This document shows positions 14,171 to 23,130 of a DNA stretch of 48,684 nucleotides, one piece after another. The DNA is from a virus (lineage: Duplodnaviria; Heunggongvirae; Uroviricota; Caudoviricetes): IMG/VR virus record IMGVR_UViG_3300020171_000017, positions 1-48,684 of that record; one strand, given 5' to 3'. Position 1 is the stretch's first letter, and each line of letters begins with the position of its first letter. The notes beneath the pieces were generated by a model. It saw only the letters and a program-made list of their open reading frames with translations, was not told the DNA's origin and did not search any database. Position numbers and translations under genes: made by a program.

Positions 14171-15748
14171 ATGGCAAAATGGACTACTGAGTATATTAAT
14201 AACCTAAGCGATTTGGCTTTCGCTTATATTGAAGATGGCGGTACTAAAGATGCTGATGGTAAAACCGTACCGAGATCGTTACGGCATTTACCGTATAAAG
14301 ATGAGGCAGGTAACGTTGATGCCGAGCATGTACGAAACGCTTTAGCGAGGTTACCGCAAACAGATATTTCAGATGCGGCAAAAGCGGCGGCACGCAAAAA
14401 ACTAGTCGCGGCGGCAAAAAAGGTTGGTGTTACCGTTGCTGATGAATCGAAAAAAGTGTTAGCGATACCTTTTGAATATCCGTTTAGTATTACGAAAACA
14501 TATGTAGATGGTGAGAAATGGTTTATAGAAGGTTACGCCGGTAGTACTGAATTGGATTTAGTCGGCGATATAATTACAGAAGAAGCCTTTAAATTAGCTG
14601 AAAATGATTTAGTAGGTAATTCGACTGTGCTTTATAACCATGATCCAGAACAATCAATTGGTAAAATCGAAGAAGTAAAAGCTATGCCAGAAGGATTATG
14701 GATAAAAGCGTTGATTAGCCAGACTGAACCTGATATTTGGCAGAAGATCAAAGAAGGTGTATTGAATAAGTTCAGTATCAGAGGCAGGGTTGTTGACGCG
14801 GTAAAGAAATTCATCAAAGATATTGGTAAAGTAGTAAATGTGATTAATGAGATATACCTAATCGAAGCGTCTTTAGTGGCATTGCCTGCTAATCCAGAGG
14901 CGAAGGCACTTTGTTGGTATGTTTCTAAATCGTTAACCGAGTTTGAATCGAAGGGGGGTGAAATTCCAATAGAACATGCTGATAATAACATGTTGAATGG
15001 AGGTACTATGACTATATCAGAACTAATGAAACAAATCAATGATCGTTTGGTCGCTGATGAAGACAAGGCTCTTTTAGCTACATTGCAATCTGAAGTTGAA
15101 AAATCTATCGCGACAATCATTAAAAAGAAATCAGGCGAGGCAATGACTCAATCTGATATCGACGTGCTAGAGAAATCAATTACGGATTTACAGGCAGCAC
15201 TTGACCTTGAAAAACAAAAAAAACCTAAAAAACCGATAGCAGATGAAATGCAAGATGATGAGATGAAAGAAATTATTGCGTTAGCAGATGAAATTCGCAA
15301 GAAATTTCCTGAAAAGTTTCCTAAAAAACCAGAAGATGAAGTAAAACCGAAAGAAGGTGTTAAAAAATCTACTGGCGAAGAATATACACAAATAGAGGTA
15401 GACACAATAGCTAAAGAATTAAGCGATACAAAAGCTAAAGTTGAGACTTTATTGAAAGAGTTAAACGATCTTAAAGCTGATACAGAAGTTGCTAAAAGAT
15501 GGGATAACTTAAAAAATGAATATGACAATAACGATGCTACTCTGGTAAAATCGATTTTAAAGAAATCGGTTACAGGTATTGCTTTAACTGTAGATGAGAC
15601 TGAACAACTGGTAACTAAAAAGTTGAGTTCTAGCCAGTTACGCGTTGCAGGTGGTAAAAATGAAACTGAAATTAAAAATTTAGACGCTCAAAGGCGTGAA
15701 GATTTGATTAAAAAAGGCGGGATTAGAGTTCGTTTAAAAAGTTCTTAA
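14171..15748 (+). CDS. HK97-type prohead protease fused to a scaffold-like coiled coil
   Basis: IEGYA, DLVGDII, LYNHD (His), FSIRG (Ser), EASLVALPANPEA. Extra N-terminal domain and charged helical C-terminus. Confidence 0.9.
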   Translation: MAKWTTEYINNLSDLAFAYIEDGGTKDADGKTVPRSLRHLPYKDEAGNVDAEHVRNALARLPQTDISDAAKAAARKKLVAAAKKVGVTVADESKKVLAIPFEYPFSITKTYVDGEKWFIEGYAGSTELDLVGDIITEEAFKLAENDLVGNSTVLYNHDPEQSIGKIEEVKAMPEGLWIKALISQTEPDIWQKIKEGVLNKFSIRGRVVDAVKKFIKDIGKVVNVINEIYLIEASLVALPANPEAKALCWYVSKSLTEFESKGGEIPIEHADNNMLNGGTMTISELMKQINDRLVADEDKALLATLQSEVEKSIATIIKKKSGEAMTQSDIDVLEKSITDLQAALDLEKQKKPKKPIADEMQDDEMKEIIALADEIRKKFPEKFPKKPEDEVKPKEGVKKSTGEEYTQIEVDTIAKELSDTKAKVETLLKELNDLKADTEVAKRWDNLKNEYDNNDATLVKSILKKSVTGIALTVDETEQLVTKKLSSSQLRVAGGKNETEIKNLDAQRREDLIKKGGIRVRLKSS

Positions 15749-15765
15749 GGAGGTGACAATAAAAC

Positions 15766-16155
15766 ATGGATGTTAATTTATTAGATACACATATTGGCGT
15801 GCAATTAGCAGCTGGTGTGGCGGTAGGTCCTGGTACATTGATTAATTTGTATTCAGGTTCTGGCGTAGCAAGCGGTTCGTTAACTGCGAAACTAGCTGAT
15901 CACAGTTCTAGTATTTGGGCTCATGGTTTTGCTTTAACTAGTGGTGCCGGTACAAAAACAGCAGGTGTTGCTCAAAAAGTAAGAATGGATAGAGTTGGTA
16001 GGGTTACTAACGTTACATACTTAACATTAAGTCCTGGTCAATCTGTTTATTTAGGTGAAGACGGTAAATACGCAAAATCAGGAACCCAAAAAGTAGGGTT
16101 CGCTGTTGGTGCGAATGACGTATTTGTTGACTTAGATATGCAGCTAGGTGCTTAA
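15766..16155 (+). CDS. Capsid cement/decoration protein
   Basis: 129-aa Gly/Ala-rich beta protein between protease and major capsid protein (VYLGEDGK...VGFAV pattern). RBS AGGAGG. Confidence 0.65.
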   Translation: MDVNLLDTHIGVQLAAGVAVGPGTLINLYSGSGVASGSLTAKLADHSSSIWAHGFALTSGAGTKTAGVAQKVRMDRVGRVTNVTYLTLSPGQSVYLGEDGKYAKSGTQKVGFAVGANDVFVDLDMQLGA

Positions 16156-20053: not shown

Positions 20054-21019
20054 ATGAAAATGGCTGAAAAATGTAAAATAGGTATTGGAGCACCAACCTA
20101 TAACTCGGTAAAACGGTTAGAGATGTTACTTTCTTCGCTGGAACTTTATGGGGTAGATAGTTATGACGCACGAGTTGTGATCTTGGATGATGGTTCGCCT
20201 GATCCAGAGATGAGAAAAGGTGTTGAAGAACTCGCACTTCGGTTTGGTGCAGATTTTATTCAGCATGAAACTAATAAAGGTATACCTGCGGCGTGGAATT
20301 CGTTGACGGATCACTGTGATTGTCAATATATGATTTTACTAAATGACGATATTGCGGTTTCTCAAAATTGGCTGAGAAACTTTGTTTATTTTATGGATAA
20401 TAATCCACAAATCGGCAATGTTGGGTTTTCTATTGTGCATGTTGATCCCGTTACGATGTTGCCTGACAAAAGATTTACGCCACCTGATGAAAATTCTCCA
20501 CCTGGTCGTTGTGGCTCACCCAATGGCTGTAGCTTTGGCTTCCGTAAAGAATTATGGAAAAAGATAATTAATCATGACAATAGCCGGGGGTTTTGGGAAA
20601 ATCTGATCAGTTTTTATGAGGAATTATCGTTTTCTTTTGAGATAGCGAAGATGGGTTTCCATTCTTTTCAGTTACCTACACCACTTTTAGAGCATTTAGG
20701 TAGTCGTACTTTTGGTGAAAATAAAGAACTATCTACAAGACAAATAGGTTCCTATATTACAAAAGAAGAATATTTGCGTAGAATGAAAGAAAATAAAAAT
20801 TTATGGATACCGTTTGAACAACACGAGGAATTAGCCTTAAAACAAAATTTAGCCTTACGGATGGATTATTCAAGAATGATGTTTTCGAAACATTGGGGTG
20901 CGGATGATTATCTTTCTTCTCCACAAGTATTTGTACATTCTAAATATGTAGATATATTGCCAAAAATAGAGGTTAAATGGTTGGATAAAGATGGGAATGA
21001 GAGAAAGCAGCTGATATGA
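20054..21019 (+). CDS. GT2 family glycosyltransferase
   Basis: IGAPTYN, VILDDGS, NKGIPAAWN, LLNDD. Confidence 0.9.
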   Translation: MKMAEKCKIGIGAPTYNSVKRLEMLLSSLELYGVDSYDARVVILDDGSPDPEMRKGVEELALRFGADFIQHETNKGIPAAWNSLTDHCDCQYMILLNDDIAVSQNWLRNFVYFMDNNPQIGNVGFSIVHVDPVTMLPDKRFTPPDENSPPGRCGSPNGCSFGFRKELWKKIINHDNSRGFWENLISFYEELSFSFEIAKMGFHSFQLPTPLLEHLGSRTFGENKELSTRQIGSYITKEEYLRRMKENKNLWIPFEQHEELALKQNLALRMDYSRMMFSKHWGADDYLSSPQVFVHSKYVDILPKIEVKWLDKDGNERKQLI

Positions 21020-21058
21020 ACAAGAAATCGCACCGCAATCTATGAGCGGTGCTCATAG

Positions 21059-21463
21059 TTAGGTGCGTTGATTCTGTATATATTTCTTAACAATATCTAA
21101 AGGAGCACCGCCAGTGGAAACAGCGAAATATCCAGATGACCAAAGTGTGTGTAAATGTCTTCCGAAATATGGGAAGGCGTACTTATGTTTTAGATATGAT
21201 GATGATTTTGCTTTTAATGCACCTATAACATTTCCAAGTGTATCTTGTGGAGTTAATTCTAGAAGAAAATGCACATGGTCTGTATCTCCGTTTATTTCAG
21301 TAATTTTTACTAACATTTTTTCTGCCATATTCGGCAGTACAGCGATCAAATCTTTAAGAATATCGTGAGAAAGACAGTGATACCTAAATTTAGTGACCCA
21401 GACAACGTGGTAAGTAAGAAAGAACTTACAATGTGCCTTACTTTTAAGGTCGTCATATCTCAT
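21059..21463 (-). CDS. tnpA: IS200/IS605 Y1 (HUH) transposase
   Basis: YHVVWVTKFR, DHVHFL (HUH), LWSSGYFAVSTG, YIQNQ (catalytic Tyr). Confidence 0.95.
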   Translation of the reverse strand: MRYDDLKSKAHCKFFLTYHVVWVTKFRYHCLSHDILKDLIAVLPNMAEKMLVKITEINGDTDHVHFLLELTPQDTLGNVIGALKAKSSSYLKHKYAFPYFGRHLHTLWSSGYFAVSTGGAPLDIVKKYIQNQRT

Positions 21464-22510
21464 AAATTAACTCCTATTTTGGATTTGTTATACCAGAAAG
21501 CAAATGTATGTGTTAAAGAAATGTTAACGCATAGAGAACTTTCTTCTTCAAAATATTATAAAAGTATTCCGTGCGTACTTGCGAAATCTCTTATTACAAA
21601 ATATCAGAAAAATAAAAAGATTAAGATGGTTAGTAAGTTAGTATTACCTATATGTGGAGATAAAGGGAAACAAGTAAAACTTGTTAATGATGGAGTTCGT
21701 ATTCCTGCTATTTTTAAAAAAATAATAATACCAATAATTTTTCCTAAACCGATTGTTGGACATATTAGACAAGTTGAGTTCTTCAAAAGAAACAAAAAAT
21801 GGTTTATGTCCTACTCATATAATACTCTTATTATAGCACAACAAACAGTATTAAGTTATCTTGGAGTTGATAGAAATGCTGTAGGTAATGTTGCTACGAT
21901 TGCAGACTCTGCTACTGGCAAAGTTATGGTACTCGGATGCGATGTATCAAAAATAACAGAAAATTTTCGTAACCGCAGAAAGAATTTACAAAGGAAAGGA
22001 GCAAATCATGCATTAATAAAACTCAAAAGAAAACAAAGTAATAAGATTAAAGATATTAACCACAAAGTTTCCCGTACCATTGTTGACTATGCCAAAGTAC
22101 ATCGTTCCGCTATTGTGTTAGAAGATTTAGGGAATATTTCTAAAAAAGGTAAAGCCAAGAGATATGTACAGAGATCTCAGTGGTCTTTTTATCAATTAGA
22201 AATGTTTCTAAAATACAAAGCGGCTTTGCTTGGCATACCACTTTACTATATTAATCCTAGGTACACTAGTCGGATATGCAGTAGATGTGGCAGCCTCAAC
22301 TTACCAAATGGTAAGTGCTATAAATGCACATCATGTGGACACTTTGACCATAGAGATGCCAACGCTGCTTTCAATATATCAGCACAGGCAGATTTTCTCT
22401 GTAGGAGAACAGCAGTAGACAGAGTTGCTGCTGTGGGGCATATTGGTATTCCCCTAAACCAGAGAGTTGAGGAAGCAATGCAACTGGAATCGTTGGGCGG
22501 TGCCCGATGA
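21431..22510 (+). CDS. tnpB: TnpB RNA-guided nuclease (compact)
   Basis: RuvC-I LGVD, RuvC-II VLEDL, TSRICSRC...CTSC zinc finger, RuvC-III RDANAA. ATG 21431 preferred (GTG 21365 is an alternative). Confidence 0.92.
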   Translation: MCLTFKVVISHKLTPILDLLYQKANVCVKEMLTHRELSSSKYYKSIPCVLAKSLITKYQKNKKIKMVSKLVLPICGDKGKQVKLVNDGVRIPAIFKKIIIPIIFPKPIVGHIRQVEFFKRNKKWFMSYSYNTLIIAQQTVLSYLGVDRNAVGNVATIADSATGKVMVLGCDVSKITENFRNRRKNLQRKGANHALIKLKRKQSNKIKDINHKVSRTIVDYAKVHRSAIVLEDLGNISKKGKAKRYVQRSQWSFYQLEMFLKYKAALLGIPLYYINPRYTSRICSRCGSLNLPNGKCYKCTSCGHFDHRDANAAFNISAQADFLCRRTAVDRVAAVGHIGIPLNQRVEEAMQLESLGGAR

Positions 22511-23130
22511 GTATCAAAATTGACCTGCATTTAAGAGAAGATATATTAGAGCATTTCCAAAATTTTGAATATTTCAACTGCAAAAATCCTGAAAGGCTAG
22601 ATTTTTCAAGAGTAGACAATATCACTGGCATCCAACAGGAGGCGTTCCTATTATATTGGATTTTAAAACAAATGCAAGAGCATGGTTGGGGGGTGGGGCT
22701 TGACATTGGTTGCGGCCAAGGTGCGCATTTCGGTTGTATCGGTTTAGATAAATATTACGGCAAGTCCCACCCCCAATACGGCGGTGAATATTTACCACAT
22801 ATTACATCCTTAGCAGAAAATATTACTTGTTTTAATGAAGGTACCTTCGGCTGGATCCTTGCGTCACATATTCTCGAACATGTTAATAATCCAGTAATTA
22901 CATTTCGTAGCTGGTTAAAACTGCTTCGTAAAAATGGCATTATAATTCTTTTGCAACCAGATGCAAATTTTGAGATTCCATGTCCGTGGGACCCAAGCCA
23001 TAAAAATTTTTACACACCAGAAGATTTCAGAAACAATTGCATATTGCCGAATCAAGATTTAATTCAAGAATTAGAATTTAATTCACTAAATAATAATTTC
23101 TCAATGAATTTTATCGGCAGGAGGATCTAA
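22507..23130 (+). CDS. Class I SAM-dependent methyltransferase
   Basis: LDIGCGQG, ASHILEH, LLRKNG. The current start codon lies within the IS right end. Confidence 0.88.
   Translation: MSIKIDLHLREDILEHFQNFEYFNCKNPERLDFSRVDNITGIQQEAFLLYWILKQMQEHGWGVGLDIGCGQGAHFGCIGLDKYYGKSHPQYGGEYLPHITSLAENITCFNEGTFGWILASHILEHVNNPVITFRSWLKLLRKNGIIILLQPDANFEIPCPWDPSHKNFYTPEDFRNNCILPNQDLIQELEFNSLNNNFSMNFIGRRI

Follow-up and report, generated by a model that had tools for sequence, protein, structure and literature searches.

An IS605-group element family of phages with a candidate portable translation start at its right end

How can a gene still be translated when a mobile element has been inserted directly behind its start codon? 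This question is raised by a 48,684-nucleotide stretch of viral DNA (hereafter the window), which makes up the initial 48.7 kb of a virus record 135.5 kb long. Behind genes for a prohead protease and capsid-like proteins lies a long glycosyltransferase/methyltransferase operon, in which a minus-strand tnpA (PF01797) and a plus-strand tnpB (PF07282) stand between a family-2 glycosyltransferase (GT2) and a methyltransferase. On the sequence evidence given below, we consider it very likely that they belong to an autonomous IS605-group clade in which the right end serves as a portable start for translation, rescuing hits at start sites. The features of the locus are as follows.

20060..21019, plus strand: GT2, the upstream host gene (PF00535); its TGA (21017-21019) overlaps the original methyltransferase ATG
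21016..21020, plus strand: target ATGAA, comprising the original start codon and the first two bases of codon 2
21021..21062, plus strand: left end, with guide CAAT at 21036-21039 (+16 to +19), an 8-bp hairpin at 21040-21058 and a conserved TTAG
21059..21463, minus strand: tnpA, Y1/HUH transposase, 134 aa (PF01797, E 3e-30)
21377..22510, plus strand: tnpB, about 377 aa (PF07282); start uncertain, 21365-21434
22443..22448, plus strand: TTGGTA, 5' arm of a predicted omegaRNA pseudoknot whose 3' arm is the six terminal bases of the element (22512-22517)
22487..22517, plus strand: right end, with guide GAAT at 22487-22490, a hairpin at 22491-22509 and terminal TCAA at 22514-22517
22507..22510, plus strand: element-supplied ATG, overlapped by the tnpB stop TGA at 22508-22510 (ATGA) and coding M-S-I ahead of host codon 2
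22507..23130, plus strand: methyltransferase, occupied allele (MSIKIDL..., 207 aa; PF13489/PF08241); the empty allele reads MKIDL..., 205 aa
22518..22537, plus strand: predicted TnpB guide in the right flank, matching the IS-free L241 at 19/20 nt behind an ATGAA TAM

The preliminary description gave the range 21016-22524. All the sequence features it listed are present; the element itself ends at 22517 rather than 22524, giving an intact IS605-group element of 1,497 bp (21021-22517). It has the sequence hallmarks of that group, namely a Y1/HUH TnpA with an HxH motif and tyrosine (H63-x-H65 and Y128 intact by alignment, with ISHp608 TnpA as the best PDB match) and a TnpB with the RuvC D-E-D triad and zinc finger intact (D165/E249/D327 in the numbering of P0109). 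The ends form subterminal hairpins with no terminal inverted repeats, and comparison with the empty allele L241 gives no target duplication. tnpA starts immediately past the left hairpin. The left-end layout of guide, hairpin and TTAG is repeated in 42 distinct left ends of the family, and the tnpB ORF crosses the guide-RNA scaffold to stop inside the right-end hairpin. The ATGAA at 21016-21020 is predicted to be both the TnpA target and the TnpB TAM; the guide is placed at the right flank from TnpB biology (10.1101/2023.03.14.532601). An IscB element was considered and rejected, as the nuclease is TnpB/Cas12f-like and not a RuvC plus HNH protein with an upstream omegaRNA. The element is single-copy, with no second copy found in its own genome.

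Empty alleles and the interrupted start codon

Joining position 21020 to 22518 opens a frame that begins MKIDL. The preliminary description had predicted the empty junction ATG AAA ATT GAC (MKID) and proposed a search for such an allele; exactly this junction is present in the IS-free L241, where the GT2 stop overlaps ATGAA followed by GATTGACCTG, reading MKIDLHLRE. Around the site, L241 and the window are identical at 116/138 nt, with one synonymous change at the junction. GT2 precedes the methyltransferase in the IS-free relatives L006 and L007 as well as in L241, and nearly all of 40 methyltransferase homologues start M-x-I-D/N/E-L, or a close variant, at the same position; thus the window insertion lies at codon 2 of the true methyltransferase start. 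The old ATG of the occupied allele opens only a 9-residue peptide, and the reading frame indicates that the occupied methyltransferase can start at the ATG at 22507, inside the element.

The search also yielded a predicted junction at a second site. The occupied gene of L113 encodes 727 aa (MSIKIKG) against 725 aa (MKIKG) in the IS-free L201-L203, with an exact junction. A PIN gene in L087 is broken at codon 2 and encodes 151 aa, compared with 138 aa in its relatives, and Pfam domains begin directly past the junction in DnaJ (position 1 at residue 5), NT5C, RF-1 and PIN proteins. Each of these comparisons supports the interrupted codons as true gene starts. The L241 allele came from a protein collection; a viral search with the methyltransferase protein alone and an exact-pattern scan for the empty junction gave no match, and cluster look-ups of occupied alleles returned mostly singletons.

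In the related phage L005, the same GT2-methyltransferase junction holds a NUMOD3/HNH-type endonuclease gene (1728-2426) that starts ATGAAAAT and overlaps the GT2 stop. Selfish elements of more than one type are drawn to this junction. The MKID start could possibly be a relic of the HNH gene seen there, a history that is not needed as an explanation.

The right-end ATG among relatives

Relatives were collected with TnpA and TnpB as queries and with right-end patterns from which the ATG was left out. The family occurs in uncultured phages and in some bacteria; cultured phage records held only distant TnpB proteins, and GTDB genomes one family member. The closest relative (L208, 89% TnpB identity) sits at a start codon on a phage-like contig filed in a Patescibacteria MAG, and in L211 an extra 150-aa ORF (2059-2511) lies between tnpA and tnpB of a 1,992-bp element.

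An open ATG in the frame continuing the cut codon was found in 43 of 44 distinct right ends, compared with 3 and 4 in the other two frames, bearing out what the preliminary description had proposed to check, that the right-end ATG and its phase are conserved among homologues. With the hairpin type left out, the in-frame ATG was present in 23/24, against 2 and 4 in the other frames. Nominal p-values for such counts overstate independence, because the elements are related. The ATG comes in two designs. The clade of the window has it within the end hairpin, on the 3' arm, and the reading frame is lengthened by two residues (M-S-I-K/N); in other clades an ATG led by a Shine-Dalgarno (SD) sequence lies 13-21 codons upstream of the junction, an arrangement about as common as the hairpin-ATG design that the preliminary description had noted. 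Counted blind to frame, the SD-led ATGs fell into the three frames as 27, 0 and 1. Their upstream distance is 2 modulo 3 ahead of a 30-nt end module (15 cases) and 1 modulo 3 ahead of a 31-nt module (12), with 1 exception; since distance modulo 3 tracks module length in 27/28, insertions and deletions have been compensated. Nine distances combined with two module lengths would be hard to obtain through descent alone. Judged by this conservation, the right-end ATG module is family-wide and under selection.

Single members illustrate both sides of this pattern. The hairpin of L219 has decayed, with the ATG and the tnpB overlap retained ahead of a 493-codon helicase. The counter-case is an ATGAC-targeting lineage (L135, L182), which is without an in-frame ATG and whose few sites are not starts. 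A MITE group (L127, L151, L152 and others), whose right end is similar but whose ATG lies in a different frame, was considered as a shifted-target variant and set aside, as no family left end was found and most of its flanks open no long frame. The group, which comprises L127, L151, L152, L155, L166, L172 and L189, is a multi-copy MITE of 220-275 bp in a 183-kb phage, accompanied by one full tnpB copy and mostly intergenic.

Could the ATG be a mere by-product of the TnpA-binding hairpin, or of the omegaRNA fold together with the tnpB stop, with frame restoration a matter of luck and start copies surviving through it or through excision? The window clade does have its ATG inside the hairpin, with hardly any variation between relatives over the last 31 nt. 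Moreover, the terminal six bases are constrained by the predicted omegaRNA pseudoknot, in which TTGGT(G/A) covaries with terminal (C/T)ATCAA (G-C in 24 cases, A-T in 14, discordant in 5); this constraint on the last six bases excludes the ATG. Structure alone, however, does not pick a frame, because the other two frames are also open over the last 11 nt. Hairpin sequences vary freely, with the T of the ATG mostly mispaired with G in the stem, and half of the family has its ATG outside the hairpin, at nine distances, with an SD sequence and compensating indels, and in frame (27/28). We therefore regard a by-product origin as very unlikely, and a selected start module as the preferred reading.

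Distribution of insertions and target motif

When the flanks of the 38 complete distinct insertions are rejoined, 13 restore a plausible gene start; a further 15 insertions lie within ORFs, on one strand or the other, and 10 are intergenic or at gene ends. Starts were classified by an automatic heuristic rule. Against a background of ATGAA sites in the same loci, where starts make up 97/754 (13%) and internal sites 75%, starts are in excess (Fisher p 9e-4, with kinship ignored). The odds ratio is 5.1 for start against internal sites and 1.2 (p 0.83) for start against intergenic sites. Manual scoring added four start-site copies whose ends are altered or decayed, and the downstream frame was open for 100 or more codons in 26/70 cases, compared with 15% in the background. 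The expectation in the preliminary description that a TGAA-targeting element will often land on ATGAA starts thus holds in so far as starts exceed background (13/38 against 13%), but only about a third of the copies sit at starts and the target is a pentamer. The ATG has no use in the roughly 40% of copies inside genes, or in the quarter or so that are intergenic or at gene ends.

The pentamer emerges from the sites themselves. An A precedes TGAA in 34 of 42 distinct sites (81%), compared with 33% A in the flanks; the left-end finder required TGA and did not require the preceding A. In sister elements guide and target shift together (CAAT/TGAA, CAAG/TGAC, CAAA/TGAT), mostly with the ATG still in front (ATGAC, ATGAT). 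The guide rules put forward at the outset, CAAT on the left for a TGAA target and GAAT on the right for a TCAA end, are therefore upheld, with left guide and target covarying. From these alignments the target appears to be effectively the pentamer ATGAA. Because the terminus ends in the same AA as the target, TGAA elements restore host codon 2 exactly.

The threefold excess of start sites, together with the A found at position -5 in 81% of sites where 33% would be expected, might also mean that the element actively aims at starts beyond the ATGAA motif, for instance through accessible single-stranded DNA or an extended guide. Such aiming seems unlikely to us, for ATGAA sites at starts show no enrichment over those that are intergenic or at gene ends (odds ratio 1.2, p 0.83), and the excess is explained by the loss of internal insertions. 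Read most simply, these distributions mean that starts are not sought out but that insertions there are tolerated as intergenic insertions are; such tolerance is what rescue predicts.

Several loci record movement or rearrangement of copies. The site occupied in L063 is empty in L124 (5813-5932), which carries a related element elsewhere; this is recent movement between sibling phages. The pairs L149/L179 and L135/L182 each share left flank and element and have different right flanks, suggesting right-end-mediated deletions or rearrangements. In L027, L145, L149 and L159 the insertions lie at apparent internal in-frame Met/Val codons and would split the gene into two translated parts.

Coupling to tnpB and the proposed mechanism

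The tnpB stop overlaps the right-end ATG by 4-14 nt in 43/48 elements, and 86/120 of the nearest TnpB proteins share the hairpin-encoded C-terminus. In the TnpB tree three distant lineages use these ends, and both designs recur with swapped-in TnpB genes (23-35% identity), the overlap being retained. The TnpA-less elements L111, L120, L121, L149, L168, L171, L159 and L183 have family ends and an unrelated TnpB (23-35% identity) that still ends on the right-end ATG; by sequence comparison, TnpB has been swapped under a fixed end design in them.

The hairpin ATG of the window is predicted to be fully base-paired in RNA, with an SD-like stretch hidden in the same stem; initiation without coupling may therefore be weak. 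Both features of the fold would fit a restart by the ribosome that terminates on tnpB. An alternative is that the right-end ORF regulates the element itself, through omegaRNA folding, processing or stability or as a short peptide, with host rescue secondary. The coupling to the tnpB stop is conserved even in copies away from starts, and competing RNA states at IStron 3' ends offer a precedent (10.1101/2023.11.20.567912). Self-regulation, however, would not depend on which frame the ORF holds at the junction; within the element the leader peptide meets no stop, and it is unconserved unless hairpin-encoded; and selection spares start-site copies. As the primary role we judge it most unlikely, while self-regulation and host rescue may coexist.

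Host rescue by a selected start module would proceed as follows. TnpA would insert the element 3' of (A)TGAA, a position shown by the empty alleles, by a chemistry extrapolated from IS608. An insertion at a start codon would deprive the gene of its own start; the element end ...AGY ATC AA, together with the shared AA, would restore host codon 2 exactly, and an in-frame upstream ATG, kept by selection to judge from its conservation, would supply the new start. A ribosome that completes tnpB would melt the right-end hairpin and initiate again on the host gene, whose protein would gain 2 residues in the hairpin design or about 12-20 in the upstream design. Start-site insertions would then survive about as well as intergenic ones, and insertions inside genes would be purged. 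The usual IS605 life cycle would be completed by precise excision through TnpA and by TnpB cleavage of the empty allele, the latter put forward by analogy. The interrupted gene is thus probably still translated without splicing, and sequence conservation points to near-neutrality and translational coupling. Transcription reaching the methyltransferase would have to cross 1.5 kb with the antisense tnpA; promoter and terminator scans were at chance level. We lean, with some reserve, towards reading the co-adapted target motif, terminal bases, element start codon and tnpB stop of this widespread clade as a splicing-free rescue by translational coupling that ties host output to tnpB translation.

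The element resembles IS608 of Helicobacter pylori and ISDra2 in its divergent tnpA and tnpB, HUH-Y1 transposase, subterminal hairpins, lack of target duplication and insertion on the 3' side of a short motif that a left-end guide selects. The IS608 guide-pairing rule is applied here to a presumed single-strand insertion, and IS608 reportedly has the same right guide GAAT and terminus TCAA as the window element. Whereas IS608 and ISDra2 target TTAC or TTGAT (PMC13565253), the window family targets ATGAA. It also has a conserved outward in-frame start coupled to the tnpB stop, which we did not find described for IS608 or ISDra2. More generally, our searches of the literature turned up no report in which the right end of an IS serves as an in-frame start module; several key papers lay outside their coverage, so absence is not established.

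In prophages and integrative elements, an attP that duplicates part of the target gene rebuilds the interrupted gene; such a rebuild serves one specific gene by homology, whereas the window family carries a gene-independent start module for any Met-Lys or Met-Asn start. IStrons, like the window family, are TnpA/TnpB elements that ease the cost of landing in genes, and their 3' end serves both omegaRNA and gene rescue (10.1101/2023.11.20.567912). They combine a group I intron with IS605 or IS607, splice out, target TTGAT, ATTAT or TTTAT and end in TCAG (PMC13565253). The window element, by contrast, ends in TCAA, targets ATGAA and is predicted to rescue only start-proximal hits, by re-initiation. 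No Rfam match to a group I intron rose above chance, and there is no room for one outside tnpA and tnpB. The separation from IStrons drawn in the preliminary description is therefore sustained by the lack of an intron, the terminus and the target. IscB-encoding IS elements and PATEs have ATGA(A) adjacent motifs and a bias to co-orientation with neighbouring genes (Meers et al.). The window family shares with them an ATG-containing adjacent motif; the window element lands past the host ATG, so it must supply a new one.

Besides self-splicing and the targeting of safe sites, translational rescue would be a third way for insertion sequences to persist in gene-dense phage genomes, and the long C-terminal run of TnpB through the omegaRNA would gain a function in coupling. 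It predicts that tnpB is retained because the host gene depends on its translation; if so, tnpB is locked into the genome and ribosomes compete with omegaRNA folding. Host proteins would acquire transposon-derived N-terminal extensions or be split at internal Met codons, and annotation errors would be explained, in that proteins starting MSIK or MSIN, or leaders ending GSIK or GSIN, would be IS scars. With the family come at least 673 compact TnpB homologues, for which an ATGAA TAM is predicted. Elsewhere in the window, a near-perfect SD sequence (15746-15765) precedes the gene at 15766 in the head module and is the strongest of the starts tested.
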